A stretch of 29,220 bases of DNA from an uncultured Verrucomicrobiota bacterium (GCA_945947925.1 CAMEZU010000001.1:1-29220); one strand, 5' to 3'; shown: positions 10,010 to 25,485, counted from the stretch's first letter. Numbers and translations are program-made. The notes: a model not told the origin generated them from the letters alone.

Positions 10010-11857
10010 TTACCACACACCCTTCGACCTCTTCTCGTACAGCTCGCCGCCGATCCTGCGGGCGGCACGGGTCAGCGCGGGATACGGACGGTCGCAGACG
10101 TCCACAAAGCCGATCTGATACGCCTCGCCGTCCCCGCGTCCGAGGAGCGGCTGGTCGCGGTACTGGAACCAATGGCAGCCGACGATCCACGGATGAGCGA
10201 GGCAGCCTTCGACGAAGCGCGTGTAGCTGCGGGCGCGCTCGGTCTGATTCCAGACGGGCGCAAGACCGGGCTTGAACATGCCGCGGTCGTAGCAGCCGAA
10301 GTGGAACTCGCCGACGAGGATCGGCTTGTCCCGGCCCTTGTCAAAGATCTTCTCAGAGATGTTGTAGACCGAATTCGCGTAGGCGTTCACGGTCACGACG
10401 TCGCAATACTTCGCCGCCGTGCGCCAGAGGAGTCCGTCCTGACGGAAGCCGACGAAGCGACTGCCGAGATAGAGTTTCCCGGGCGCGGCCTTCGCGAGCT
10501 CCTCCCGGCAGAGGCGGAAGTAGAGGTCGACGTACGGCGCGGCCTTCGCAGGGCCGACGTCGGGAATCCACTTCTGGAACTGCAGCTCATTGTCGATGAA
10601 GAAGCCGATGCACATCGGATCCTTCGCCGCATGCCGAAGCGACGGGTCCGTCGCGAACTTCTCGCGGATCGCCGCACGGAACTTCGCCTCGAAATCGGGC
10701 GCGGTGAAGTCGTAGATGTGGAACTTCGGATGGCGTTTCACGCCCTTCGCGCGCTCGAGCACGCAGGAGACGTAGGGCTTTCGGGAGGCGAGCGAGAGCT
10801 CCGGCGCGCTCCAGTTGCCAATCGTGTTGAGTCCCCACGAATCGAACCGCCTGAAGACGAGGTCGTAGTAGTCGGACGCGAAGTCCTTCTTGCCGAACTT
10901 CTTCTCGAGGTTCCAGATCGTGAACGCCATCTTGCCGTCCGCGGGAATCTCCCCTTGGTACCATGTCGGATGCTTCGACGCGTCCGTGATGTCCGTCATG
11001 ATCCGCGTCACGTCGAGGCCGACGGAGAAGAAGAGGTGCCCCTCCGGCGTCACGAGCCACCATTTGCCATCGACCTTCTCGGTGCGGAAGTGCCCGGTCG
11101 CCTTCAGCTGCGGACCCGTCGCCCAGCCGCCGAAGCGGTCCCAACTCTCGGGCGCGGGCTTGAGTCTCTTCAGCTCGCGCGCGAGATCCCCCTTGAGGTC
11201 GTCGTCGGACGCGACCTTGAACTTCCAGTTCGCGTGCGCGAACTGTCCGTACCTGTCGACGAACGGCACGTACTTCTCCGCCGCGACAGCGCGAGCCGCG
11301 TACGGTTCGCCCTCAAGCCGCAGGTTGGAGAGACGGAAATCGGGAAGATCCTCCCGCTCCTCCTCGTACGGCCACTGCATCTGAAAGGAGACTTCCGTCA
11401 CATGATGCGTGTCGATCACATTCGGACCGCGTGCGTCCGCAGGCGCACCGTAGATCTCGGGATGGGTGAGCAGGAGCTTCATCGTCCCCTTCTCGCCAGG
11501 GTTGAGTCCGATGCCCGTGTTGACGGACCTGTTCTTCCTGAAGATCGCCGTCGCGTGATCCCCCGAGTCGCCGCTCGCGCTGCCTGCGGAGACGTGCATC
11601 GTGAGCCGCCCTTGCCGCGTCTGCGACAGGTTCTCGACATCGACGGCCAGATACTTCGCCCGAGAGAAGTCCTCTCCCGCCGCAGACGTCCACTTGAGTC
11701 CAGCCCCCCATTCGGCGCTGTTCAACACGAGGACGACGCAATTTGTCCCCTCGCGCTGCACCTTCGCCGTGTAGACGGGAGAAAAGTCCTCGAGGGTCAG
11801 CGCGGACGCACCCAGCGAAACAGACAGGAGACCTGCAGTCAGAAGAAGGCTTTTCAT
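10010..11857 (-). CDS. Secreted GH50 (beta-agarase family) glycoside hydrolase
   Basis: DRFGGW...ATGHFRTEKVDGKWWLVTPEGHLFFS, WGLNTIGNWS, IGFFIDNE (acid/base), LYLGSRF, VGEFHFG (nucleophile), VGCHWFQYRDQP..GR.DGE; signal peptide present. Confidence 0.85.
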   Translation of the reverse strand: MKSLLLTAGLLSVSLGASALTLEDFSPVYTAKVQREGTNCVVLVLNSAEWGAGLKWTSAAGEDFSRAKYLAVDVENLSQTRQGRLTMHVSAGSASGDSGDHATAIFRKNRSVNTGIGLNPGEKGTMKLLLTHPEIYGAPADARGPNVIDTHHVTEVSFQMQWPYEEEREDLPDFRLSNLRLEGEPYAARAVAAEKYVPFVDRYGQFAHANWKFKVASDDDLKGDLARELKRLKPAPESWDRFGGWATGPQLKATGHFRTEKVDGKWWLVTPEGHLFFSVGLDVTRIMTDITDASKHPTWYQGEIPADGKMAFTIWNLEKKFGKKDFASDYYDLVFRRFDSWGLNTIGNWSAPELSLASRKPYVSCVLERAKGVKRHPKFHIYDFTAPDFEAKFRAAIREKFATDPSLRHAAKDPMCIGFFIDNELQFQKWIPDVGPAKAAPYVDLYFRLCREELAKAAPGKLYLGSRFVGFRQDGLLWRTAAKYCDVVTVNAYANSVYNISEKIFDKGRDKPILVGEFHFGCYDRGMFKPGLAPVWNQTERARSYTRFVEGCLAHPWIVGCHWFQYRDQPLLGRGDGEAYQIGFVDVCDRPYPALTRAARRIGGELYEKRSKGVW

Positions 11858-11884
11858 AGGGATATTTTACCGAAATTTCGCGTT

Positions 11885-11924
11885 GGCAGGGTGGGCGCTC
11901 CGCGCCCGCCGGGAGAGTCCCGGC
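11885..11924. repeat. REP-like pair of overlapping hairpins
   Basis: GGTGGGCG-CTCCG-CGCCCGCC (11890-11910), preceded by GGCAG, resembles GTAG-type REPs. It overlaps the perfect hairpin GCCGGGA-GAG-TCCCGGC (11908-11924). Confidence 0.5.
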
Positions 11925-11945
11925 AAGCGACGGAGCCGGAATCCA

Positions 11946-14510
11946 TCAGCGGATGACGATGGAGAAGCCTGTCAGCTTCTGACACTCGAAACATCCGATG
12001 TCAATGCGGTTCTTCCCCTTGACGTCAAACACACGCGGATTACCCGCAAGGTCAACGGAGGGCAGTAGAGCAAGACCTGTCTGCGTACCCATGTTCACGG
12101 CCGAACCACCAGTCTTCAGCGTATAGTCACCCTTCGCGAAGTCCTTGAAGATCGATGATAGCGGCGCGGCGAAACTCTTCGACGAGAGCGTTACCGTATC
12201 ATCCGTCAGATTGTTGTCGAACGTGCAGTGCTCAAGATCAACCTTCGCCGACGTATACTTCGCCTTGCCCGTCTCATAGTTACCGGCAATGATGTTGTTA
12301 CGCAGGCGACCGTACCAGGTCGTACAATGAACACCCGCCGAATCCTCTGCCAGCGAGCCCTCGACGACATTTCCGGCGATCGTGCAGTTCTCGACCTGCG
12401 TATTGTTATTGCTTCCGCCGAAACGGATACCGGCAGCACCCGAACGCGCCGTATCGCCCGACGTCACATAGCGGTTCGCGGCAATCAGCGAATTGCTGAT
12501 GCGGCCGTTCTGCGAATTGTAGGGCACGAACACGGCGCCGCCCGCCAATCCCTGATTGCCGGACGTTCCCTCGACGACATTGTTCGTGATGACGCAATGC
12601 GTGAGCGTCGCGCCACTTCCGAGTTCGACGCCGCCACCGGCCGCATTGCTTGCGCCGACAAGCGCATAGCCGCCACGGATGACGCAGTTCGAGACAACGC
12701 CGGACGCCAGCCGGAGGTTCGCACCGTTCGCATCCTTGACGCGTCCGTTCTCGATCGTCACGTTTGCAAGGGAGGCTCCGGCATTGTTTAGCTCAATGGT
12801 TCGATGATAGTAGGTGTCGGGCGTCTCGGTCGTATTGCGCAGGATCACGCCCTCCGGCGTCGCGCCGAGACCGACGATCGTCAGGGCCTTGCCGACGGAT
12901 GTCTGATCCGTCGTCTCGTAGACGCCTTCTCCCACGAGAATGGTGTAGCCGTCCGCAGATGCCGACACAGCAGCCTTCAACGAAGCAAACCCCTTCTCCG
13001 GCGTGTCATACGGGAATTCCGGCTTGGCATTCCCCAGCGTCACATAGACCGTATCCGAGGCGATCTGCGCATACCCGTCATAAACCATCTCGGCCTCTTC
13101 CTCTTCGGATTCATTTCGCGCCGTGATCGTCACCGTGTAGACACCGGGCTTTTCGTACGTATGCGTAATCGTCCCCGTCGCCACCGTCTCGGGACCCGAT
13201 CCGTCGCCGAAATCGTAGGTGAACGTCACATTCTCAGGGGACGCCGAATTCTCCGCAACATGCGTAAACGTCGCAACCGCCGGGGCCGTCGTCTGATCAA
13301 GCGTCATGCCGCTGATGCGCACGATCATGTCCGGCTTCTGAAACTCAAAGCAGCCGATGTCAATTGTGCCGCTCATGCGCGGATGGCCCTCGAGATCCGT
13401 CGTCGAAGCGGATGCGCCCCGCGGATCCGCCCCGCCCGCATCGATCAAGGCGGAACCCTGCGCCGGATGATAATCACCCGCCGCGTAACCGACAAAGTCG
13501 TTCTCATCAATCACCACCAGCGTCGGGAAGGTGGTCGTCGACAGCGTATTGGCCGCCATCGCGCAATTGATGAACTGGGCGTCCGTAGACGTGGGCTGGT
13601 TGCCGCTCCATTCCCCGACGGTTCCATCCAGTTTACGATTGCCGAAGATCACGCAGTTGACGAGCGTCTGCTTGGCGTCCCAAGACCATACGCCATACGC
13701 CTTGTTGTTGACGACCGTCGTGTTGTACACCTTGCTCCCGGATGCCTGCAGCATCAAGCCGCCGCACTCGCACTGCTCGATCAGACAGTCTTCAACCTCG
13801 GCTCCGTTATTTCCGATTTGCACGCTGCCGCGCTCATAATAGAACGTGCCATCCTCTTTCTTCGTCGTCGTACCACCGATCATGTGGCAACGGCTCATCT
13901 TCGCTGCACCGTTCATCATAACGTTAACGCCCTTGGAAGTATCCCAAGCCGTGCCAGTGCTTTTGATCTGACCATCGCGAATGACACAATCAACTATCGT
14001 ACCGCCCGAAACGTAAATGTTTCCGCCATTCGACGTCGCCACGCCGTTCTTCACGACACAGTTCGTGAGCGTACCTCCCGACATCTCAATGACGCCACCT
14101 CTATCAGCCTTGGATTCGGGATGTCCTTCAAGCGTCAGGTTTTCGACCCAGGCACCCGAAGCCATGCGCAGCGTACGATGCGATCCGTCGGACTTGATGA
14201 TCACGTCGTCACGCGTCGCGCCTTCACCGACCATCTTCACGCACAAGTTCGGGCCCCACTTCGAGTTATTGTCCGCCGCACCATCGTCGTGGTGCGTGAG
14301 ATACGTACCTGGCGCAACATGAATGACGTCACCCGCCGCACGCGCCGTCACGACAGCCTTGGTGATTGTCGCGAACGGTGCCGAGGTCGAACCGTCGTTG
14401 TCGTCACTGGCATTGTCGCCACCGACATAGTAATCGGCGGCCAGCACACGGACACCCGCCGTGAACGCCAGCGCAACCGCCGCAAAATTCTTGATCCTCA
14501 GAGTAGCCAT
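11946..14510 (-). CDS. Secreted protein with two right-handed beta-helix modules, each ending in a choice-of-anchor-Q-like motif, separated by a PKD domain
   Basis: AGGAG then MATLRIKNFAAVALAF. Module starts YYVGGDNASDDNDGST..PFATI and VYVT..DTPEKGFASL; GG/GA-x-hydrophobic beta-helix turns; DLEGHPRMSGTIDIGCFE and DLAGNPRVFD..IDIGCFE; PKD FTYDFGDGS..THTYEKPGVYTVTIT; ends TGFSIVIR. Confidence 0.8.
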   Translation of the reverse strand: MATLRIKNFAAVALAFTAGVRVLAADYYVGGDNASDDNDGSTSAPFATITKAVVTARAAGDVIHVAPGTYLTHHDDGAADNNSKWGPNLCVKMVGEGATRDDVIIKSDGSHRTLRMASGAWVENLTLEGHPESKADRGGVIEMSGGTLTNCVVKNGVATSNGGNIYVSGGTIVDCVIRDGQIKSTGTAWDTSKGVNVMMNGAAKMSRCHMIGGTTTKKEDGTFYYERGSVQIGNNGAEVEDCLIEQCECGGLMLQASGSKVYNTTVVNNKAYGVWSWDAKQTLVNCVIFGNRKLDGTVGEWSGNQPTSTDAQFINCAMAANTLSTTTFPTLVVIDENDFVGYAAGDYHPAQGSALIDAGGADPRGASASTTDLEGHPRMSGTIDIGCFEFQKPDMIVRISGMTLDQTTAPAVATFTHVAENSASPENVTFTYDFGDGSGPETVATGTITHTYEKPGVYTVTITARNESEEEEAEMVYDGYAQIASDTVYVTLGNAKPEFPYDTPEKGFASLKAAVSASADGYTILVGEGVYETTDQTSVGKALTIVGLGATPEGVILRNTTETPDTYYHRTIELNNAGASLANVTIENGRVKDANGANLRLASGVVSNCVIRGGYALVGASNAAGGGVELGSGATLTHCVITNNVVEGTSGNQGLAGGAVFVPYNSQNGRISNSLIAANRYVTSGDTARSGAAGIRFGGSNNNTQVENCTIAGNVVEGSLAEDSAGVHCTTWYGRLRNNIIAGNYETGKAKYTSAKVDLEHCTFDNNLTDDTVTLSSKSFAAPLSSIFKDFAKGDYTLKTGGSAVNMGTQTGLALLPSVDLAGNPRVFDVKGKNRIDIGCFECQKLTGFSIVIR

Positions 14511-14545
14511 AAACAGTCTCCTCATCCTGAAGTGATGATGTCTAC

Positions 14546-14554
14546 ATTGTAGCA
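14546..14554 (-). promoter_or_regulatory. Extended -10 (TGC-TACAAT) of the beta-helix gene
   Basis: TGn+TACAAT preceded by an AT-rich spacer; no consensus -35. Confidence 0.6.
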
Positions 14555-14570
14555 AAAACCAAGTTTTTGA

Positions 14571-14609
14571 CATATCCTAAACCGCACCTTTTGCATATCC
14601 AAAACCGCA
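14571..14609. promoter_or_regulatory. Tandem direct-repeat operator candidate, copy 1
   Basis: CATATCCTAAACCGCA (14571-14586) and CATATCCAAAACCGCA (14594-14609): 15/16 identical, 23-bp period, over the expected -35 position. Confidence 0.7.
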
Positions 14610-14613
14610 AGAC

Positions 14614-17600
14614 TTACTTCATGCTGTTCTTGAGCCTGCCGGCTTGACGATAGTCGTACATGTTCTCGCCGACCTCACGGGCCGCGCGGGTCAGCCAGGG
14701 GTAGGTGCGGTCGCAGACATCGACGAAACCGACCTGGTACGCCTCGCCGTCGCCGCGGCCCTGCAGCGGCTGGTCGCGGTACTGGAACCAGTGCGCGCCG
14801 ATGATGTTCGGATGCACGAGCGCCCCCTGCATGAAGCGCGTGAGCGAACGGGCGCGCTCGGCCTGGGTGCCGACGGGACAGAGCCCCGCGCTGAACATGC
14901 CGCGGTCGATGCAGCCGAAGTGGAACTCGCCGTGCAGGATCGGCTTGTCGAAGCCGTTGCCGTTGAGAAGTCCCTGCTGCACGTTGTAGATGGAGTTGCA
15001 GTAGCCGTTGATGGAGACGACGTCGCAGAATTCGCCGGCCGCGGACAGGATGTAGGACGACTGGCGGTAGCCGACGAGACGGCAGCCGAGATAGAGCTTG
15101 TTCGGTGCAATCGCCTTGATCGCCTCGCGGCAGGCCTTGAAGTACGCGCGGTAGAATTCCTTTTCGTCCCCACCCGAGGCCGCCGCGGCGCCGCTGATGC
15201 CCGGTTCGTTGTCGATGAAGAAGCCGATGCACATCGGATCCGTCAGCGCCTTCTTGAGCGCCGGATCCTTTGCCGCGTTCGCCTTCACCGCGGCCTTCAG
15301 CTTCGTCTCGAAGTCCGCGGCGAAGCAGTCGTACCACGCGTAGTTCGACAGCGTCGGGACGGACGAGTCGCGCGAGTAGATCGTGCAGACGTACGGCTTG
15401 CGTCCCTTCTGGCAGAGCGCGCCCGCGCTCCAGTTGCCGATCGTGTTGATGCCCCAGGAGTCGAAGCGGTCGAGGAGGAAGTCGTAGTACGGCTCGGTAT
15501 ACGCACTTGTGCCGAACTTCTTCTGAAGGTTCCAGAGCGTGTAGGACATGCTGCCCCTCTTGTTCACCCCGTCGGCGTACCAGGCGGGATGGGCGGGACC
15601 GCTCGACGCGTCCGTCATCGTCCGCGCGACGTTCATCCCGAAGGAGAAGAAGAGGTGTCCCGACGGGGTGACGAACCACCACCTGCCGTCGACCTTTTCC
15701 GTGCGGAAGTGTCCCGTCGCCGTGCGCTGCGGACCGTTCGCCCAGCCGCCGTATTCGTCCCAGGTCGCGGGCGCCGGCTTCAGTTCCGCACGTTCGCGGA
15801 CGAGATCCTCGACGAGCTGCACGTCGTTCGTCACCTTCGCCGACCATTTGTCGTGGATGAACTGTCCGTAGTTGTCGACGAACGGCAGGTATCTCTCGCG
15901 CGGCACGGCGCGGGACTTGTCCGCGAAGGACACCAGCCTGAGGTTCGACACCTTGCAGTCGACAAGTCCCTTGAACTCGTTCTCGTACGGCCACTGGATC
16001 TTGAATGCGATGTCCGTCACATGGTGCGTGTCAATCGTGTACACGCCCTTCGCACCGTCCGGATAGCCGTAGATATCCACATGCGGCAGCAGGAGCATCA
16101 TCGTGCCCTTCTCACCGGGATTGAGGGCGATGCCCGTGTTGACGGAGCGGTTCTGCGCCAGGATCGCCGCGGCATGGTCGTCCGAGTCGGTGATGACGCC
16201 GCCCGCTGACACGTGCATCGTCAGGCGCATCTGCCGCGTCGTCGAAAGGTTCTCGACGTCCGCCGCGAGGTAGCGGCCCTGCGAGAGGTCGACGCCGTTG
16301 CTGTTCGAATAGAGCGCGCCCGTGCTCCATTCCGCGCTCGGCATCTGCAGGCGCACGGCCCCCTTGCCCAACTTCAAGACCGTCGCCTTGTAGACGGGTG
16401 CGAAGTCCTCCATCGTGAACGGCAGCGGATCCGGCTGCGGCTCGGTGATGGAGATGAAGAACCCGTGGAAGATCTGCTTCTTCACGCGGCAGTTCTGGAA
16501 GAACGCGACGGCCTGATGCTCCTTCGCCCAGGAGGAACCCGCAAAACCGACGTAGAGCCGTTCGGGCCAGCCGTCCAGCGACCGCGTCGCGACCTTGCGT
16601 CCGTCGATGTAGACGTTCAACTTACCTTCGAGACGCTCGAGGCCGATGCGCGCCGTGCCCGTGCCGAGGTTCCGCGAGAAGAACGTCGTGAGCGCCGCGC
16701 CCGTCCGGTTGCGCATCTGCGCCATCAGGCGTCCGTCGGCATACGACCGCACCGCCGTGATGCAGCGCGCGTTCGCCGCGGTCGGCGACTCGCGCACGCA
16801 GAGTCCGAGGCGGCGCCACACGCCCTTGCCCCCGTTGTATCCTGTCGGCAACGAGACGTTCGCCTCGATGAGGAAGTCGCCGTCCATCGGCCGCGCGAGG
16901 AAGTGGATCGCGTCGGTCGTCAGTCCGTTGTCGAACGACCCCTCGCCGGACGAGGCCAGGAAGGTGAGGTCGAACGCGTCGGGGCGGCGTCCTCCCGTCG
17001 AGAGCGTCCCTTCGAGGATCGAGTTGCCGGGGATGGACGTCCCGATGTCGTAGTCGCGCCAGGCGCCGAAGACGCCGTCCCGGTCGAGCCGCACGGGAGA
17101 AGACGCCGTGCGCGTCGTCGACAGCCATTCCTTCGGCAGCGGCGCCCAGTCCGTCCCGTCCCGCCGCCAGGCGAAGGAGAAGCTGCCGGAGCCCGTGCCG
17201 TTCCCCTTCCTCCACATCACGTTGATCGGATAGCGCCGGCCGGCCGTGAGGCGGATCCACCCGCTTTCGTCGGTCCGCGTCCCGGTGACGCGGTCGAACG
17301 CCGTGAAGACGTCGGTCCCGCCCAGCGAGAGCTTGGCGCAACCGTTCGCGTAGCTCTGGCGGAACCGGTAGTAGCCGCTCACAGGCACGGTGAGAAAGCC
17401 GTGCCACAGCGAATAGAAGTTCTGGCGGTCGACCGTCTGGCCCGCGTCGGTGACGTAGGGACCGTCCGCCACGTCCCAGGCGGACGGCAGCGTGCCGATC
17501 AGCGTCAGGTCCGGCATCGCGGCGGAAGGTCCGTCCTGCCACGACCGGTACACGGCCTGCCAGAGCCCCTTGCCGTCCGGCGTCCGCTGCGTCGGCGCGA

Positions 17601-19038
17601 GCGTCGCCGTCATCGCCGGCAGGGTCGGCCAGGCGAAGCCGAGCGACCAGAACGAGGCGGCGTTCGCCGAGACGGACAGCGCGACGCCCGTGTCGCCCTT
17701 CCAGGCATCGATCGTCTTTGCGCCGCTCGCGGGCACCGAGACGCGCGCCACCGTCCCCGTCATGCCGTCGGGCGCCGCCTCCGTCACGGTCACCGTCCAG
17801 CCCGCCACGAAGGAGGCGCAGGCGTCCGACCACCACCAGCCCTGGCTCCCCAGCCGCCGCCCCGTCACCTGACGGCGCTCGGCGTCCGTCCCCGTCATGA
17901 CGCGACAGGTCAGTGCGCCGGACGCTTCCCGTGTGACGGACAGTTCGGGCGTCACGCTCACGGGCACAAACGAGATGCGCGAGAACCGCGCCGTCTCGGT
18001 CTTGGACTGCGACCGCGAGAAGACGCCGGGACCGACGCGCAGGTCGCCCGCCCAAAGCCCCGTGGCGGCGATCTCGCCCGCGTTCGTCCAGACGCCCGTC
18101 GACTGGCAGAACGCCAGCGTGAGGCGTCCCTGGCGACGCGTCAGCCGAAGCGGCACCTGCGCCCCGGCGGCGAACGCGTCCGGCACCTGCGTCGCCTTCA
18201 CGGCGCCGCCCTGCTGCGCCCGCACGGCGAACGTCACGCCGCTTCGGCGGACGGCGAGCGAGACGCCGGGACAGATCGCATTCGTGAGCGAGGTGCGCGC
18301 CACAAGCGCCGCCGCGCCGTCCTGCGGCACCGTGCAGGTCGCCTGCAGGACGAAGTCATCCGTTCCCGTCGGCAGCGTGAGCGTGTCGATCTCGTCTCCG
18401 TCGTACATGAAGCCGCGGCCGACGCCCGTCAGCTCGAAGACGCGGGCGGTGGCGTCGTAGGCTACTGTGCCGTAGGCTCTGCGTTGTCCGTAGCCGAAGA
18501 AGGTCCAGGGCTCGGGCACGGGCTCGAGCAGGTTGCCCGAGATCCAGATCGTCTCGTTCGCCGCGACGTCCAGGAGGCGGATCTGGCAGAGTTCGCTCCC
18601 CGTGCCCTCGCGGTATCTGAAGGAAATCGGGTAGCGCCGGTTCGCCTCCAGTTCGATCGGCTCGCTGAACTGCTCCTTGCCGGACGCATAGTTCGGCTGG
18701 TCGATGACACACCGTCCGTTCAGGTGGAGGACGAGTCCGTCGTCAGCGATCGTCTTGAACCGATAAGCGCCGGACTTCGTGACGTGCAGCACGCCGTTGC
18801 CGCGCACCGTGAAGTTGTCAAACGCGGCGAGTCCGTGCGGCGCACCGGACGGCAGCCGACGATCCGCAGCGACGTCCCACGGCTTGTAGTAGGTCGTCGT
18901 GTTGACGTAGGCGCCGCAGACGGCACCGTCCTGCTCGAACACGAGCTGGAGTCCGCCAGGCGCGGCGATGCCCCGCCACGCGGGAAGACAGGCGAGGGCG
19001 CAGGCGCAGAAGAGTCCGAAGGATCGGGGGGTGGTCAT
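14614..19038 (-). CDS. Large secreted multidomain protein: (PA14 + ConA-like/DUF1349-like sandwich) x2 fused to a C-terminal GH50 hydrolase
   Basis: AAGGAG then MTTPRSFGLF signal peptide. PA14 motifs GAYRFKTIADDGLVLHLNG..YPISFRYREGTG and GYYRFRQSYANG..YPINVMWRK. Sandwich motifs FVLQAT..AALVAR and IHFLARPMDGDFLIEANV..GLCVRE. The C-terminal ~600 aa carry all GH50 motifs (FIDNE, HGEFHFG, HWFQYRDQP). Confidence 0.85.
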   Translation of the reverse strand: MTTPRSFGLFCACALACLPAWRGIAAPGGLQLVFEQDGAVCGAYVNTTTYYKPWDVAADRRLPSGAPHGLAAFDNFTVRGNGVLHVTKSGAYRFKTIADDGLVLHLNGRCVIDQPNYASGKEQFSEPIELEANRRYPISFRYREGTGSELCQIRLLDVAANETIWISGNLLEPVPEPWTFFGYGQRRAYGTVAYDATARVFELTGVGRGFMYDGDEIDTLTLPTGTDDFVLQATCTVPQDGAAALVARTSLTNAICPGVSLAVRRSGVTFAVRAQQGGAVKATQVPDAFAAGAQVPLRLTRRQGRLTLAFCQSTGVWTNAGEIAATGLWAGDLRVGPGVFSRSQSKTETARFSRISFVPVSVTPELSVTREASGALTCRVMTGTDAERRQVTGRRLGSQGWWWSDACASFVAGWTVTVTEAAPDGMTGTVARVSVPASGAKTIDAWKGDTGVALSVSANAASFWSLGFAWPTLPAMTATLAPTQRTPDGKGLWQAVYRSWQDGPSAAMPDLTLIGTLPSAWDVADGPYVTDAGQTVDRQNFYSLWHGFLTVPVSGYYRFRQSYANGCAKLSLGGTDVFTAFDRVTGTRTDESGWIRLTAGRRYPINVMWRKGNGTGSGSFSFAWRRDGTDWAPLPKEWLSTTRTASSPVRLDRDGVFGAWRDYDIGTSIPGNSILEGTLSTGGRRPDAFDLTFLASSGEGSFDNGLTTDAIHFLARPMDGDFLIEANVSLPTGYNGGKGVWRRLGLCVRESPTAANARCITAVRSYADGRLMAQMRNRTGAALTTFFSRNLGTGTARIGLERLEGKLNVYIDGRKVATRSLDGWPERLYVGFAGSSWAKEHQAVAFFQNCRVKKQIFHGFFISITEPQPDPLPFTMEDFAPVYKATVLKLGKGAVRLQMPSAEWSTGALYSNSNGVDLSQGRYLAADVENLSTTRQMRLTMHVSAGGVITDSDDHAAAILAQNRSVNTGIALNPGEKGTMMLLLPHVDIYGYPDGAKGVYTIDTHHVTDIAFKIQWPYENEFKGLVDCKVSNLRLVSFADKSRAVPRERYLPFVDNYGQFIHDKWSAKVTNDVQLVEDLVRERAELKPAPATWDEYGGWANGPQRTATGHFRTEKVDGRWWFVTPSGHLFFSFGMNVARTMTDASSGPAHPAWYADGVNKRGSMSYTLWNLQKKFGTSAYTEPYYDFLLDRFDSWGINTIGNWSAGALCQKGRKPYVCTIYSRDSSVPTLSNYAWYDCFAADFETKLKAAVKANAAKDPALKKALTDPMCIGFFIDNEPGISGAAAASGGDEKEFYRAYFKACREAIKAIAPNKLYLGCRLVGYRQSSYILSAAGEFCDVVSINGYCNSIYNVQQGLLNGNGFDKPILHGEFHFGCIDRGMFSAGLCPVGTQAERARSLTRFMQGALVHPNIIGAHWFQYRDQPLQGRGDGEAYQVGFVDVCDRTYPWLTRAAREVGENMYDYRQAGRLKNSMK

Positions 19039-19070
19039 GGGGACAGGTCTCCTTTTTCGATGATGCTGAG

Positions 19071-19076
19071 ATTCTA
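19071..19076 (-). promoter_or_regulatory. -10 element (TAGAAT) of the PA14-GH50 gene
   Basis: TAGAAT upstream of the AAGGAG RBS; same spacing to the tandem repeat as at the beta-helix promoter. Confidence 0.55.
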
Positions 19077-19095
19077 CACGATGGCAAGACATTTT

Positions 19096-19134
19096 CAGAT
19101 CCTAAACCGAATCTAAAACATGTCCGAAACCGTA
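19096..19134. promoter_or_regulatory. Tandem direct-repeat operator candidate, copy 2
   Basis: CAGATCCTAAACCGAA (19096-19111) and CATGTCCGAAACCGTA (19119-19134), 23-bp period; same consensus CAnRTCCnAAACCGnA as 14571-14609. Confidence 0.68.
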
Positions 19135-19143
19135 AATTAATTC

Positions 19144-19173
19144 TTGCGCTGAGACATGCCGGCATGATAGAAT
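19144..19173 (+). promoter_or_regulatory. Sigma70-type promoter of regulator 1
   Basis: TTGCGC (19144-19149), 18-nt spacer, then TAGAAT (19168-19173) with TG extension. It overlaps the track's ATG 19172, which favours ATG 19184. Confidence 0.55.
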
Positions 19174-19183
19174 GGCGTCACGA

Positions 19184-20347
19184 ATGAAGACGATCCTGTT
19201 CATCACCGACCTCCACACGGGATCGCGCGTTCCCGAACTCGCGGGCGTGCGCGAATTCGCGGTGGCGCACGACTGGCATGTCGAGGAAATCGAGGTGGCG
19301 CGCCTCGCACGCCCCGTAGCGGACGTCCTGCGATATTGGAATCCCGAGGGCTGCATCCTCGAGGGATCCTCCAACCTCCTGCCGCCCGCCGAGGAATTTG
19401 GCAACATCCCTGCCGTTCATATCGATGCCGGCGAAGCGGTGGTCAAGGACAAGGCGACATTCGTCGTCTCCAATGATGACGCGGCGATAGCGGACCTGGC
19501 GCTGAAGGAGCTGCTAAAGTCCGACTGCAACGCCTACGCCTTCGTCGGCTGGAGCGCCCGCGTGGCCTGGAGCCGCCACCGGCAAGAGCGCTTCGTCGCG
19601 CGACTCTCGGAAATCGGACGGACGTGCCACGTACTCACGGACCCGTGGACTCTCGGCAACAAGGACGACTTCGCCACGCGTCTCCGCCCCTGGCTTGAGG
19701 CATTGCCCAAGCCCTGCGGACTCTTCGCGGCGAATGACGACATCGCCGCCGCCGTCCTGGACGTCTGCACGATGGCCGGCATCTCGGTGCCGGGCGACAT
19801 CGCCGTCATCGGCGTCGACAACGTGTCCGCCTTCTGCGACAACCTGCGTCCGTCCCTCTCCAGCGTCGAGCCCGACTTCCGCGGCGGCGGACGCATGGCG
19901 GCCGCCCTCCTCCACGAACGGCTCACGAATCCGGCGACGCGTCCGCAGAAGCTCACCTACGCGCCGCTCGGCGTCGAGCCACGCCTTTCCACGCGACGGC
20001 TGGCGTTCTACGGACGCCGCCTTCTCACCGCCCTAGACCTCATCCGATGCGACGCCTGCGCGGGTCTCAAGGCTGCGGATGTCGTCAAGGTCATGGGCGT
20101 CTCCGAGCGCCTCGCCGAGACGCGCTTCAAGGCCGCGACCGGCCACCGCATCACAGAGGAGATCCGCGAGAATCGCTTCCGCCGCGCCTGCGAGCTGCTG
20201 TCGAACCCGCGCCAGGCGATCGGACCGATCGCCACGCTCTGCGGCTGGGAATCGGAGGCCTTCATGAAGCGGGCGTTCAAGGCCCGCTTCGGCTGCACGA
20301 TGCGCGAATGGCGCGACAGGCAGACGACGCGGAGGGCGCACGCATGA
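19184..20347 (+). CDS. XylR-type transcriptional regulator (periplasmic-binding-like sensor + C-terminal AraC HTH)
   Basis: LPKPCGLFAANDDIA, VPGDIAVIGVDN, LSSVEPDF; AraC end RFRRACELL..IGPIATLCGWESEAFMKRAFKARFGCTMREWR. Divergent from the CAZyme cluster. Confidence 0.9.
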   Translation: MKTILFITDLHTGSRVPELAGVREFAVAHDWHVEEIEVARLARPVADVLRYWNPEGCILEGSSNLLPPAEEFGNIPAVHIDAGEAVVKDKATFVVSNDDAAIADLALKELLKSDCNAYAFVGWSARVAWSRHRQERFVARLSEIGRTCHVLTDPWTLGNKDDFATRLRPWLEALPKPCGLFAANDDIAAAVLDVCTMAGISVPGDIAVIGVDNVSAFCDNLRPSLSSVEPDFRGGGRMAAALLHERLTNPATRPQKLTYAPLGVEPRLSTRRLAFYGRRLLTALDLIRCDACAGLKAADVVKVMGVSERLAETRFKAATGHRITEEIRENRFRRACELLSNPRQAIGPIATLCGWESEAFMKRAFKARFGCTMREWRDRQTTRRAHA

Positions 20348-21693
20348 GGAAAGACTTCACCCTCGTTGTTCGGACGGCGCTGCCGCTCGTCTTCGCCCAG
20401 CTCGCGTTCGCCGCGAACACCTTCGTGACGCAGTTCTTCCTCGCGCACCACTCGACGACGGCGCTCCACGCGTCGCTTCCCGCGTCGATGCTCGCAGTCA
20501 CGTACATGGTGTTCTTCAACATGACGCTCGGCTATGCGGGGACGATCTTCGCGCAGCGCCACGGCGGCGGCGACACGCGGGGCGCGCTCGCCGCGTTCGT
20601 GCAGTCCGTCTGGCTCACCCTCTTCACCCTGCCGCTCCTCGCCCTCGGCTGTCCGCTCGCGCGGCTCGTCCTCGGCGTCTTCAACACGTCGCCGGACGTC
20701 CTTGCCGCCGAGACGCGCTACTTCGACATCCTGATGCTCAACGCGGCCTTCACGATTCTCGCGCAGGTCCTCGGCGGTTTCTTCACGGGACAGGGAAAGA
20801 CGAAGTTCGTCGGACTCGTCACGGTCTTCGGGTTTCTCGTCAACATGGCGATCGCACCCGTCTTCATCGCCGGCTTCGCGGGACTCCCGGACGGCACGGC
20901 GGGCGCCGGCATCGCCCAGACGATCGCTCACGTCGTCCCGTGCGTCATCCTCGCCGTGGCCATCGCCCGCGCGCCCGAGTTCCGCGCGCGGACCGTCTCG
21001 CTCCGGCCGAGCCTCACGGCGCGGGAGACGATGGAGATCCTGCGGCTCGGAATGCCGAACGGACTCCGGACCGTCCTTGAGATCGGCGGGTTCTTCTGCT
21101 TCACGGCCTTCCTGTCCGAAGGCGCGCCGGCGGCGGTTGCGGCCTCGACGGCGGTCTTCGCCGTCAACAACATCCCCTACGGCGCCGTCCAGGGACTCGC
21201 CTCCGCGGTCGAGATCCTGGTCGGACGCGCCAGCGGCAGAAAGGACGCGGTCGCGGTGCGCGGCATCCTCGTGACGGCGACGATCCTTACCGTCGTCCTC
21301 GCCGTCCTCTACGTGAAGGTCCTCTGGCTCTTCCAGGACCCGATTCTCGATCCGTTCCTCAAGAACGCGCGCGTCACGTTGGAAGCCTTCCACGAAACGA
21401 CACGCGTCCTCGTCGCGATTGTCGCGGCGAAGACGCTGTTTGAGATGATGACGCTCGTCCTGCAGGGCGTGCTGCGCGGACTCGGCCGGACAGCCGACGT
21501 GTGCCGCGTGCAGGCGATCACCTCGTTCCTCGTCTGGATCCCGGCCTACGGCCTGGTCAGGATCTGCCACCCGACGGTGCCCGCCTACTGGCTGACGATG
21601 ATCCTCTCCGGCGTCGCCTCGTGCGTCCTGCTCGGACGCTCCGTGCTGAAGCGAATCACAGGCCGAAGCCGAAGTACTGGTTCGTGTTGTTGA
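20344..21693 (+). CDS. MATE family (MOP superfamily) transporter
   Basis: ATG overlaps the regulator TGA (ATGA). About 12 hydrophobic segments; PLVFAQL, GGFFTGQGKTK, ILRLGMPNG, VLQGVLRGLGRT. Confidence 0.85.
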   Translation: MRKDFTLVVRTALPLVFAQLAFAANTFVTQFFLAHHSTTALHASLPASMLAVTYMVFFNMTLGYAGTIFAQRHGGGDTRGALAAFVQSVWLTLFTLPLLALGCPLARLVLGVFNTSPDVLAAETRYFDILMLNAAFTILAQVLGGFFTGQGKTKFVGLVTVFGFLVNMAIAPVFIAGFAGLPDGTAGAGIAQTIAHVVPCVILAVAIARAPEFRARTVSLRPSLTARETMEILRLGMPNGLRTVLEIGGFFCFTAFLSEGAPAAVAASTAVFAVNNIPYGAVQGLASAVEILVGRASGRKDAVAVRGILVTATILTVVLAVLYVKVLWLFQDPILDPFLKNARVTLEAFHETTRVLVAIVAAKTLFEMMTLVLQGVLRGLGRTADVCRVQAITSFLVWIPAYGLVRICHPTVPAYWLTMILSGVASCVLLGRSVLKRITGRSRSTGSCC

Positions 21694-23071
21694 ACGAGAT
21701 GTCCTCGACGATCTGGCCAAGCAGCTTGAAGTCCGCGATGACCTCGCCGTTCTCGACCCACTGGCCGATCACGTTGCAGAGGATGCGGCGGAAATACTCG
21801 TGGCGCGCATACGAGAGGAACGAACGCGAGTCCGTCAGCATGCCGATGAAGCCGGCGAGCGAGCTCAGGTTCGCGAGGTCGCGCAACTGCTTCTCCATGC
21901 CGAGCTTGTGGTCGTTGAACCACCAGGCAGAACCGACCTGAACGCGCTGCGGGAACGAGCCGTCCGTCTGGAAGCAGCCCGCGATCGAGCCCATGATCTC
22001 GTTGTCGTTCTGGTTGAGCGAGTAGAGGACGACCTTCGGCATCGTGCCCGTCTGCTCGAACGCGTTGAGGAGGTTCGCGAGCGCCTTCGCGCCGCGCGTG
22101 TCGCCCACCGCGTCGAAGCCCGTGTCGGGACCGAGCGCCGCCATCATCTTGTCGGAGTTGTCGCGGATGCAGCCGTAGTGGAGCTGCATCACCCAGTCGC
22201 GCTTCGCATACTCGCCCGCCAGGTAGCGGAGGACCGCGGTGCGGAACGTGTCGCCCGCCGCGACGTCGATCGCCTTGCCGGCGCGGCCGTCGAGGAGGAT
22301 CCTGTCGAGCTCCTTCTCCGTCGCCTCGGCGTACACGGCGTAGTCGAGTCCGTGGTCGGACACCTTGCAGCCCTTGGACGCGAAGAACGCGATGCGCTCG
22401 CCGAGCGCCTTCGTCAGGTCCTTGAACTTCCGGATCTTGAACCCGACGACCGTCTCGAGCTTTTCGACATAGCCCGCGAACGGCTTCTTATCCACGTTGA
22501 AGGCCTTGTCCGGACGGAACGCCGGGAGCACCTTCACCTTGCACGTCCTGTCCGCCGCGATCTTGTCGTGCCACTCGAGCGAGTCGATCGGATCGTCCGT
22601 CGTGCAGATGAGCTTCACGTTGGACTGGTCGATGAGGCCGCGCACGCTCATGTTCTTCTGCGCGAGCTTCTTGTTGCACGTCGCGTAGATCTTCTTCGCG
22701 GACCTCTCGCAGAGCTGCTCGGTGACGCCGAAGTAGTTCTTGAGCTCGAGATACGTCCAGTGGTAGAGCGGGTTGCCGAGGAGGCGCGGGAGCGTCTTCG
22801 CCCAGGCGAGGAAGGTACGGTAGGGATCCGTATCCTTCGAGCCAGTGATGTCCGTCTCCGGCATGCCGCAGGTGCGCATCTGGCGCCACTTGTAGTGGTC
22901 GCCGCCGAGCCACACCTCGGTCACCGTCTTGTACCGCTTGTCCTCCGCGATGTCCTGCGGATTGATGTGGCAGTGGTAGTCGATGATCGGCATCTTCGCC
23001 GCATGCTCGTGGTACAGCTTCTTCGCCGCCGCCGTCTCCAACAGGAAATCCTTATCCAAGAACTTCTTCAC
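21656..23071 (-). CDS. uxaC: Uronate (glucuronate/galacturonate) isomerase
   Basis: GAGGAGG then GTG (KKFLDKDFLLET); PIIDYHCH, WLGGDHYKWR, CTTDDP, FRPDKA, MQLHYG, GSAWWFND, GMLTDSRSFLSYARHEYFRR. 3' end overlaps the MATE gene by 38 bp. Confidence 0.95.
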   Translation of the reverse strand: MKKFLDKDFLLETAAAKKLYHEHAAKMPIIDYHCHINPQDIAEDKRYKTVTEVWLGGDHYKWRQMRTCGMPETDITGSKDTDPYRTFLAWAKTLPRLLGNPLYHWTYLELKNYFGVTEQLCERSAKKIYATCNKKLAQKNMSVRGLIDQSNVKLICTTDDPIDSLEWHDKIAADRTCKVKVLPAFRPDKAFNVDKKPFAGYVEKLETVVGFKIRKFKDLTKALGERIAFFASKGCKVSDHGLDYAVYAEATEKELDRILLDGRAGKAIDVAAGDTFRTAVLRYLAGEYAKRDWVMQLHYGCIRDNSDKMMAALGPDTGFDAVGDTRGAKALANLLNAFEQTGTMPKVVLYSLNQNDNEIMGSIAGCFQTDGSFPQRVQVGSAWWFNDHKLGMEKQLRDLANLSSLAGFIGMLTDSRSFLSYARHEYFRRILCNVIGQWVENGEVIADFKLLGQIVEDISFNNTNQYFGFGL

Positions 23072-23126
23072 AAGATCCTCCTCATCCACGTGTTCTTCGT
23101 CACTCGTCACGACGCGTTGACCGCGC

Positions 23127-24230
23127 TCAGCGGTCGACGCGCGCACCGCCGCCGCCGACCATCTTCTCGATGTCCGCCTTCGTCGCCATCGACGTATCGC
23201 CGGGCGTGGTCATCGCGAACGCGCCGTGCGCGGCGCCGTAGTTGACGGCCTTCTCGGCGTCGTCGAAGGTCATGAAGCCGTAGATGAGGCCCGAGGCGAA
23301 AGAATCGCCGCCGCCGACGCGGTCGTAGATCTCGAGGCCGGGACGCTGGACGGAGCGGTGGAGCTGGCCCTTGTACCAGCAGATGGCGCTCCAGTCGTTG
23401 ACCGTCGCGGACTTCACGCTGCGGAGCGTCGTCGCGACCGCCTTGAAGTTCGGGTAGATGGAAACGGCCTTGTCGATCATCTTGCGGAAGCCCTCGATCG
23501 GAAGCGTCGTGAGGTTCGCGTCCACGCCCTCGACCTCGATGCCCAGGGCCGCGGTGAAGTCCTCCTCGTTGCCGATCATGACGTCGACGTACTTCGCGAT
23601 CTCCTTGTTGACCTCCTGGGCCTTGGCCTGTCCGCCGATGGACTTCCAGAGCGAGGCGCGGTAGTTGAGGTCGTAGGACGTCACGGTGCCGTACTTCTTC
23701 GCGGCCTTCAGGGCCTCGATCGCCACCTCGGCGGTCGTCTCGGAAAGCGCTGCGAAGATGCCGCCCGTATGGAACCAGCGCACGCCCTCCTTGCCGAAGA
23801 ACGCCTCCCAGTCGATCTCGCCGGGCTTGAGCTGGGAGATGGCCGTGAGGCCGCGGTCGGCACAGGAACGCGCGCCGCGGCAGCCATAGCCGCGCTCGAC
23901 GAAGTTGAGGCCGTTGCGGACCTCGCGGCCGATGCCGTCGAACGTGCGCCAGAGGACGTGGCTCACGTCGACGCCGCCCTGGAGCATGAAGTCCTCGACG
24001 AGACGGCCGACCGGATTGTCCGCGAACGCGGTGACCGCCGTCGTCTTGAGACCGAAGCAGCGGCGCAGGCCGCGCACGACGTTGTACTCGCCGCCGCCTT
24101 CCCAGACCTTGAACTCGCGGGCGGTGTGGATGCGTCCGTCGCCCGGATCGAGGCGAAGCATGATTTCACCGAGGGACGCCGCGTCCCACTGACAGGAACC
24201 GGCCGGCTTGACGTTAAGGGAATCTGACAT
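23127..24230 (-). CDS. kdgK: 2-keto-3-deoxygluconate kinase (PfkB family)
   Basis: LGEIMLRL, GGGEYNV, WFHTGGI, SYDLNYRASLW, IGNEED, DRVGGGDSFASGLIYG; RBS GGAAAGG. Confidence 0.9.
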   Translation of the reverse strand: MSDSLNVKPAGSCQWDAASLGEIMLRLDPGDGRIHTAREFKVWEGGGEYNVVRGLRRCFGLKTTAVTAFADNPVGRLVEDFMLQGGVDVSHVLWRTFDGIGREVRNGLNFVERGYGCRGARSCADRGLTAISQLKPGEIDWEAFFGKEGVRWFHTGGIFAALSETTAEVAIEALKAAKKYGTVTSYDLNYRASLWKSIGGQAKAQEVNKEIAKYVDVMIGNEEDFTAALGIEVEGVDANLTTLPIEGFRKMIDKAVSIYPNFKAVATTLRSVKSATVNDWSAICWYKGQLHRSVQRPGLEIYDRVGGGDSFASGLIYGFMTFDDAEKAVNYGAAHGAFAMTTPGDTSMATKADIEKMVGGGGARVDR

Positions 24231-24260
24231 TTTCGTATACCTTTCCAAATCTTTACGGTT

Positions 24261-24279: not shown

Positions 24280-24309
24280 TTGAAAGGATATAGCAAATAA
24301 TTGTACAAT
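24280..24309 (+). promoter_or_regulatory. Sigma70-type promoter of regulator 2
   Basis: TTGAAA, 18-nt spacer, TACAAT (24304-24309). Confidence 0.5.
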
Positions 24310-24342
24310 AATAGCACCATCCAATCATGTCCGCGAACCGCC

Positions 24343-25485
24343 ATGCACAACCACGAAGTCCTGCTGCTGATCAGTTCCGATCCGCCCACCCGCTACGAGG
24401 GCATCGCCCGTCTTGCCGGCGAGCACGGTTGGCACCTGCGCGCCGAGTCGCGGCGCTCGCCGCCGAAGGACTGGAGCGGCGACGGCGTCCTCGTGATGCT
24501 CAACGGGGACGAGGCCTTGATGCGCTTCGCGCGCTCCGTCCGCCGCCGGAAGATCCCGATGGTCGACCTCCTGGAGGAGTGCCCCGACTTTGACGCCGTG
24601 CGCGTCACCGGCGACAATCCTGAAATCGGACGCCTTGCCGCGACCCACTTCAACGAGCGCGACTTCCGTCACGCGGCGTTCTTTTCCGTCCGCCACAACC
24701 ACACGCACGACCTTCGCGTCGCGGGATTCAACGAAATCTGGCGGGGCCGTCCGCTCGAGAACTGGATCTGGCCGGACGTGGCGGGCGCCGGACAGGACGA
24801 CTGGCGGAAGATGGGCGCCTGGCTTGCGGCGAAGCTGAAGGACGCCCCGAAGCCGTTCGCGGTCTTCGCCTGGAACGACTACGACGCGACGCACGTCCTC
24901 AACGCCTGCCGGCAGGCCGACCTCAAGGTTCCAGACGACGTGTCGATCATCGGCGTCGACAACAACGAGGTCATCTGCGAGCACCAGAGCGTGAACCTCT
25001 CGTCCATCGCGCACGACCACGAGCGCATCGGCTACATGGCCGCCGCGACGCTGGAGCGGATGATGTCCGGCGGCGAGCCGTCCCGACGGCTGACGCGCAT
25101 CAAGCCCCAGGGCGTGATCACGCGCGAATCGACGGAAACGTTCGCCGTCTATGACAAGGCGCTTCAGCCGGCGATCGACTTCATCACCCGCAATCTCTCG
25201 CATCCGCTCGGCGCCGCCCAGATCGCCGCCGCCCTGAAGATTCCGCGCATCCGCCTCGACCGCCTGTTCGCGACGCGGCTCGGACACAGCGCCGGCGCGG
25301 AAATCGCCCGCCGGCGCATCGCCGAGGCGAAGCGGCTCCTGGACGGGACGGACCTGCCGCTCGCGGCCATCGCCGAGCGCTGCGGCTTCTGCCACGCCTC
25401 GTTCCTGATCCGCACCTTCAAGCGCGCGACCGGACTGACGCCCCACGGCTGGCGCCGAAGGAACGAGACCGCAGGTCGGGAATAA
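24343..25485 (+). CDS. Second XylR-type (sensor + AraC HTH) regulator
   Basis: PKPFAVFAWNDYDA, VPDDVSIIGVDN, LSSIAHD, RIAEAKRLL..LAAIAERCGFCHASFLIRTFKRATGLTPHGWR. Divergent from kdgK-uxaC. Confidence 0.9.
   Translation: MHNHEVLLLISSDPPTRYEGIARLAGEHGWHLRAESRRSPPKDWSGDGVLVMLNGDEALMRFARSVRRRKIPMVDLLEECPDFDAVRVTGDNPEIGRLAATHFNERDFRHAAFFSVRHNHTHDLRVAGFNEIWRGRPLENWIWPDVAGAGQDDWRKMGAWLAAKLKDAPKPFAVFAWNDYDATHVLNACRQADLKVPDDVSIIGVDNNEVICEHQSVNLSSIAHDHERIGYMAAATLERMMSGGEPSRRLTRIKPQGVITRESTETFAVYDKALQPAIDFITRNLSHPLGAAQIAAALKIPRIRLDRLFATRLGHSAGAEIARRRIAEAKRLLDGTDLPLAAIAERCGFCHASFLIRTFKRATGLTPHGWRRRNETAGRE

Follow-up and report, generated by a model that had tools for sequence, protein, structure and literature searches.

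Class II activator sites, such as araI1-araI2 of the AraC-regulated pBAD promoter and those of XylS and RhaS, consist of two direct repeats of about 17 bp, of which the proximal one overlaps the -35 element by a few bp, with the regulator gene lying divergently; the repeat period of AraC and XylS is typically 21 bp. The XylR protein of Escherichia coli (PDB 4FE4/4FE7) acts on two sites of about 37 bp, IA and IF, with two direct repeats each, at promoters with poor -35 and -10 elements (Ni et al. 2013, PMC3561964). According to the same paper, its binding requires xylose, and it is able to join two sites in a DNA loop. In Vibrio, XylRA activates a beta-1,3-xylan utilisation locus via two direct repeats, as confirmed by electrophoretic mobility shift assays (PMC12125979). 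Here, we describe a candidate operator of this general kind in a 29,220-nucleotide (nt) stretch of DNA from an uncultured Verrucomicrobiota bacterium (GCA_945947925.1 CAMEZU010000001.1:1-29220; hereafter the window), which is an entire contig of a 2.04-Mb metagenome-assembled genome (MAG; 81% complete, 64% GC). The same tandem direct repeat stands at two of its minus-strand promoters, P1 and P2, and a gene for a XylR-type regulator (19184-20347) lies divergently beside P2.

The 16-nt motif CANRTCCNAAACCGNA has four exact plus-strand matches in the window, starting at 14571 (CATATCCTAAACCGCA), 14594 (CATATCCAAAACCGCA), 19096 (CAGATCCTAAACCGAA) and 19119 (CATGTCCGAAACCGTA), where an earlier reading of the same sequence (the original prediction) had placed them. 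None was obtained in 100 dinucleotide-preserving shuffles, and allowing two mismatches adds just one match, within coding sequence. The copies form two pairs of 16 + 7 + 16 = 39 bp with a period of 23 bp (Table 1), both of which lie upstream of minus-strand genes and point towards the target gene. On the transcribed strand, each promoter runs from the distal repeat through 7 nt to the proximal repeat, then through exactly 19 nt to a predicted -10 hexamer (TACAAT at P1, TAGAAT at P2) and onward to the ATG of the target gene (at 14510 and 19038, respectively); the period and spacing of the original prediction are thus correct to the nucleotide. As the proximal repeat ends 19 nt upstream of the -10 hexamer, it would cover about -47 to -32, the usual place of a -35 element. 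An alternative promoter at P2, with TTGCCA and CATCAT separated by 16 nt, was dropped in favor of TAGAAT, since it is without a counterpart at the orthologous sites considered below. P1 and P2 also have in common the heptamer CATCATC, exactly 5 nt downstream of the -10 hexamer (14533-14539 and 19058-19064, minus strand) and around the expected start, where orthologous sites have GTCA(A/T)AAGGAG; the shared heptamer may belong to the initially transcribed sequence or may be a remnant of promoter duplication.

Among 151 sampled genomes of the same family, about 19 encode orthologs of the regulator (51-63% identity), often on a contig that also carries GH50 genes. We picked loci by regulator homology alone and examined the 450 nt upstream. 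The core of the motif (CCNAAACCG in window orientation) is present upstream of 14 of 18 orthologs and of none of 11 paralogs (38-46% identity), with a chance expectation of about 0.007 per region; conservation upstream of orthologs, which the original prediction had made its own touchstone, is thereby borne out. At 17 sites in 13 genomes, including this one, the period is 23 throughout and the proximal core stands 24 or 25 nt from a TAnAAT or TATAnT hexamer. Counted from these predicted, conserved -10 hexamers, the proximal 16-mer spans about -47 to -32 at all 17 sites, and -35 elements are poor, with 1-4 of 6 positions matching at best. Both between P1 and P2 and across the 13 genomes, the cores and the -10 hexamer are kept, whereas the spacers and surroundings diverge freely. 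Moreover, loci with a single exact core (in G178, G109, G190, G156, G028 and G184) have a degenerate distal copy exactly 23 bp upstream, for example GCGGAAATGGTTAG.

The cross-genome consensus on the transcribed strand is T[G/T]CGGTTTnGG[T/A]T, in which the core columns had served for selection, whereas the flanking T at -2 and the T at +11 had not. Of the 16-mer proposed earlier as a regulon motif, the core is conserved, whereas its 3' part, AYnTG, is strain-specific. A first strict tandem pattern (TCC...) was dropped, as it found only the near-identical locus of genome G004; it was too narrow because it included strain-specific flanks. Across the 151 genomes, every exact tandem match in an AT-rich, promoter-like context comes from an ortholog-bearing genome; the six other exact tandem matches have GC-rich spacers, and a reversed-pattern control is equally frequent. 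Five GH50-bearing genomes without an ortholog gave just noise-level matches. Regulator and site are unlinked in G135, being on contigs C16 and C2, respectively, and the gene downstream of the site there encodes a beta-helix protein and has two GH50 genes next to it. In general, the genes behind the sites encode signal-peptide DUF1565 ‘DYYV’ beta-helix proteins of 850-960 aa, with GH50 genes also targeted in G199 and in the window. In line with the GH50 locus of the original prediction, the large target gene is GH50-like, but across genomes the DUF1565 beta-helix gene is the target with the widest conservation.

G004, with the near-identical locus mentioned above, carries it at 97% identity (window 14508-22028), with a gene for a different, 1087-aa protein replacing the 854-aa beta-helix gene behind P1 and with the repeats and -10 hexamer retained. 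The exchange covers window 11738-14507 against 7637-11052 of L074 (G004:C11), with homology resuming at window 11737. The break coincides with the start codon or falls close to it, such that the operator and promoter were kept and the cargo gene was exchanged. Separately, the L077 locus (G153:C70, 11892-12290) has two tandem sites that face the same way at a distance of 355 bp; a -10 hexamer follows the first of them, but no long open reading frame (ORF) does. This spacing recalls the approximately 360 bp between the two XylR-regulated clusters of E. coli, where looping has been shown.

We then scanned the whole 2.04-Mb MAG with a position weight matrix (PWM) built from the 13 conserved columns, requiring two copies 23 bp apart. 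This recovers exactly three sites, namely P1, P2 and a further one at 290-321 of contig C148, against none in a reversed-genome control. Thus, the two tandem pairs that make up the four copies first noted are joined by a third elsewhere in the genome. It lies upstream of a paralogous ‘ADYYV’ DUF1565 beta-helix gene and has the same geometry as P1 and P2, with 24 nt from the core to a TATACT hexamer. Single-copy PWM hits (on C124, C268, C72, C28 and C95) were dropped, as they lie in tRNA genes or coding sequence.

The divergent gene, which had been called XylR-like, encodes a protein with the architecture of the XylR-type family, namely a sensor domain like that of LacI and the periplasmic binding proteins (PBPs), followed by an AraC-type double helix-turn-helix (HTH), in approximately 390 aa. 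Pfam matches are to PF13377 (Peripla_BP_3; 3.1e-29, residues 109-270) and PF12833 (HTH_18; 5.4e-13, residues 302-379), and residues 21-379 give a full-length match to E. coli XylR (PDB 4FE4, 1.3e-31). The likeness extends to the sites, which measure about 37-39 bp, comprise two direct repeats and immediately precede promoters whose -35 is poor (39 bp here, at three sites in this genome and 14 in 12 others), and to the locus, with two or more sites and a divergent arrangement. In contrast, the E. coli repeat is A-rich (gaAa..AAT) and that found here contains GC (CGGTTTnGG). The E. coli targets are the xylose catabolic and transport genes xylAB and xylFGH, whereas those found here encode a secreted PA14-GH50 protein and DUF1565 beta-helix proteins; xylA, xylB and xylFGH are absent from the window, and the phylum differs (Kiritimatiellae in the present case). 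Since xylose genes are missing from the locus and the repeat sequence bears no relation to that of E. coli, the protein is best classified as a member of the XylR-type family and not as an ortholog of XylR in function. We also read the repeat period of the E. coli xylA-xylF region from the MG1655 sequence; it is ambiguous, at 21-25 bp, and we make no claim from it.

The Vibrio system offers a second parallel, as XylRA shares the architecture of the present regulator and is a XylR-type activator of several promoters of a polysaccharide-degradation locus, with a two-direct-repeat motif obtained from cross-genome comparison (PMC12125979). It differs in being gammaproteobacterial, with an AT-rich motif and xylose as the proven effector, whereas the present system is known from sequence alone. 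Further, that locus is for xylan, whereas by gene content the substrate here is not xylan. The class II sites of AraC, XylS and RhaS are alike in their two direct repeats, with the proximal one at the -35 position (a predicted one here), and in their divergent regulator. They differ in period (21 bp as against 23 bp) and in the sensor, which is a cupin or jelly-roll domain there and of the LacI/PBP type here.

What we observe directly is the repeats, with their geometry, conservation and co-occurrence with one regulator clade; the binding protein, the activation, the transcription starts and the effector are what we infer from them. As the repeats are kept beside regulator orthologs in about a dozen relatives, they are very probably the regulator's binding site. 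That the repeats face the target, that the proximal one reaches the predicted -35 position, that a good -10 is combined with a poor -35 and that the divergent regulator is of the AraC type together argue for class II activation, which the original prediction had proposed and which the invariant period and -10 distance at 17 sites further support. Hence, we consider it likely that P2, P1 and the C148 promoter are activated by the 19184-20347 protein, which would bind the repeats when loaded with a substrate-derived sugar. In this mechanism, the substrate of the locus would yield the sugar; with it bound, the regulator would occupy both repeats through its AraC-type domains and recruit RNA polymerase to promoters that have no usable -35 element, in the manner of AraC at araI1-araI2 and of E. 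coli XylR at IA and IF. The predicted regulon in this genome would comprise the PA14-GH50 gene (from P2), the beta-helix/PKD gene and the second GH50 gene (from P1), and the paralogous beta-helix gene on C148.

Several observations weigh against activation by this protein. The statement that no consensus -35 exists is roughly true, but -35-like hexamers matching at four of six positions occur with a 16-nt spacer (CTGAAA and ATGTCA) at P1 and P2, and P1 has an extended -10. The main weakness of the reading is that 10 of the 17 target promoters have a TGn extended -10, which may offset a poor -35. The promoters might therefore fire without an activator, and activator dependence is suggested but not forced by the sequence. 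The site adjoins both the regulator and the beta-helix gene in most genomes, such that adjacency alone cannot tell which protein binds. Three genomes with an ortholog (G169, G198 and G172; MAGs 88-91% complete) gave just noise-level matches in whole-genome scans at two mismatches. Finally, the 23-bp period differs from the 21 bp of AraC and XylS and is not general in the wider paralog family. It was found at one of 30 more distant paralogs (in G206 and G085), many of whose upstream regions are coding, and a general 23-bp rule for all XylR-type paralogs was dropped accordingly.

The extended -10 elements bear most directly on an unlikely but still appreciable alternative, in which the same protein acts at the same site as a repressor or anti-activator. 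Unliganded and bound at -70 to -32, it would block contacts of sigma region 4 or of the C-terminal domain of the polymerase alpha subunit, or would loop P1 to P2, and the promoters would run on their extended -10, which is able to work without a -35, once the sugar releases the regulator. The PBP-like sensor domain, which is common to LacI-type repressors, is consistent with this. However, at none of the 17 sites do the repeats overlap the -10 hexamer or the predicted start, and P2 and several orthologous promoters have no TGn.

Somewhat less probable still is that the repeats are the operator of another transcription factor encoded elsewhere, with the XylR-type gene being merely a conserved neighbor of the beta-helix operon. 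The adjacency of site, beta-helix gene and regulator in most genomes does not discriminate between this and binding by the regulator, and the three ortholog-holding genomes with noise-level matches speak in its favor. Against it stands the restriction of promoter-context sites to ortholog-holding genomes, together with their absence from the five GH50-bearing genomes without an ortholog. Moreover, direct repeats in the class II position are a signature of AraC-type domains, and at the corresponding place closer paralogs of the regulator carry repeats of another sequence. It is very improbable that the repeats have no regulatory role and are the leftover of a duplicated promoter cassette or a small mobile element. 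Such a view could draw on the CATCATC at one offset in P1 and P2 and on the G004 exchange with its break near the promoter, but it needs cores evolving at the rate of the spacers, which they do not. The cores and -10 alone are conserved, the genome has just three copies, which share one promoter geometry, and the distance to the -10 varies by no more than 1 nt.

The paralogous regulators show a related pattern. Of 17 closer paralogs (38-45% identity, or from genome G000), seven have period-23 repeats of their own. Repeats of this kind occur on contigs C289 (~1625-1670) and C100 of G000 and at loci L065, L067, L070, L071 and L072; examples are the tandem TTATCCGTTTGCGAA / TTATCCGATTGCGCA and ACGATTGCGTCATT, which occurs twice. 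On C289, the repeat likewise stands 24 nt from a TATACT hexamer, which is on the opposite strand. Pairing the paralog motifs with paralog clades by best hits was abandoned, as it gave no clear orthology. In the 3.9-Mb genome of G206, of the same genus, at least 43 XylR-type paralogs (77 first-look candidates) point to a large expansion in that genus, whereas the 2-Mb MAG of the window has about 10. We tentatively raise the possibility, which we hold to be doubtful, that the XylR-type regulators that have expanded in gut Kiritimatiellae (to more than 40 paralogs in some genomes) share a subfamily-wide ‘address format’, a 23-bp-phased repeat 24-25 nt from the -10, with each paralog reading its own repeat. 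If this were true, the sugar-responsive wiring of uncultured glycan degraders would be mappable from sequence alone. Equally tentatively, dimers might bridge the sites of one locus by looping, as in E. coli XylR (P1 and P2 being 4.5 kb apart, and the G153 sites 355 bp).

Table 1. Operator repeats, predicted promoter elements and genes of the locus, in window coordinates
Feature	Coordinates	Strand	Remarks
P2 distal direct repeat TACGGTTTCGGACATG	19119..19134	-	about -70 to -55 from the predicted start
P2 proximal direct repeat TTCGGTTTAGGATCTG	19096..19111	-	about -47 to -32, into the -35 position
P2 predicted -10 hexamer TAGAAT	19071..19076	-	separated from the 16-mer by 19 nt and from the CGGTTTnGG core by 24 nt
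P1 (internal promoter) distal direct repeat TGCGGTTTTGGATATG	14594..14609	-	
P1 proximal direct repeat TGCGGTTTAGGATATG	14571..14586	-	
P1 predicted -10 hexamer TACAAT	14546..14551	-	TGn (extended -10) just upstream
Target gene 1: 1474-aa secreted protein, two PA14 domains, C-terminal GH50-like catalytic region	14614..19038	-	PDB 4bq2 Aga50D (GH50 beta-agarase), 2.5e-56
Target gene 2: 854-aa signal-peptide protein, DUF1565, right-handed beta-helix, PKD	11946..14510	-	
Second, short GH50 paralog, 615 aa	10010..11857	-	53% identical to the C-terminal part of the large GH50-like protein
Genes further downstream		-	GH2, GH3, melibiase-like protein, LacZ-type GH2
Divergent XylR-type regulator, 387 aa	19184..20347	+	LacI/PBP-like sugar-binding domain and C-terminal AraC-type double HTH
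Predicted promoter of the regulator	19144..19173	+	-35 TTGCGC (19144-19149), 18-nt spacer, TGaTAGAAT (19165-19173)

The regulator has a predicted promoter of its own (Table 1), with only 10 nt between its predicted -10 hexamer and the ATG at 19184. In most orthologous loci (L045-L062), a promoter of the form TTGCnC, 17 or 18 nt, TGaTAcAAT recurs 7-11 nt before the start codon; in L051 and L056, the -10 and start codon are 15 and 24 nt apart. No Shine-Dalgarno sequence is seen at the regulator gene in the window or in most orthologs. The short distance, recurring as it does in most orthologs, suggests that the regulator mRNA is probably nearly leaderless. The start at 19184 is likelier than the listed ORF start at 19172, because the latter would overlap the -10 hexamer. 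As the P2 operator lies approximately 10 nt upstream of the regulator's own -35, autoregulation is possible.

As for the target genes, the DUF1565 beta-helix type stands behind the operator in most related genomes, and sequence searches gave no catalytic assignment for the 854-aa protein of the window. The short GH50 gene is probably co-transcribed from P1, to judge from strand and spacing. The window further encodes a second XylR-type regulator (394 aa, 24301-25485, plus strand), 30% identical to the first and divergent from genes for a PfkB kinase and a UxaC glucuronate isomerase (21656-24248, minus strand); no period-23 repeat is seen in the AT-rich intergenic region between them. Related records are labeled Kiritimatiellae or ‘uncultured Verrucomicrobia’, and the stretch is present in many pig-gut metagenomes. 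Two runs labeled as metatranscriptomic were set aside as RNA evidence for the transcription starts, since they hold contigs only and are uninformative on starts or expression. One of their contigs runs unbroken from 17768 to 21497, spanning the divergent promoter; these runs probably contain DNA, and the missing cover over 11906-14311 in them is not interpretable.

The Kiritimatiellae found in animal guts have not been cultured and have many genes for glycan degradation. Full-text literature searches turned up no paper on their transcriptional wiring, and none was found on XylR-type regulators in Kiritimatiellae. What is new here is the motif, the targets and the phylum; the principle is a textbook one, the arrangement is as expected for this regulator family, and the understanding of the regulator class is unchanged. 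Nevertheless, the present locus provides a concrete, conserved pairing of regulator, operator and targets, with putative XylR-type control of secreted GH50 and beta-helix proteins. Such a pairing can be used in the search for the inducing sugar and, hence, for the substrate of the enzymes, while the repeat period and -10 distance provide a template for finding the operators of the closest paralogs.

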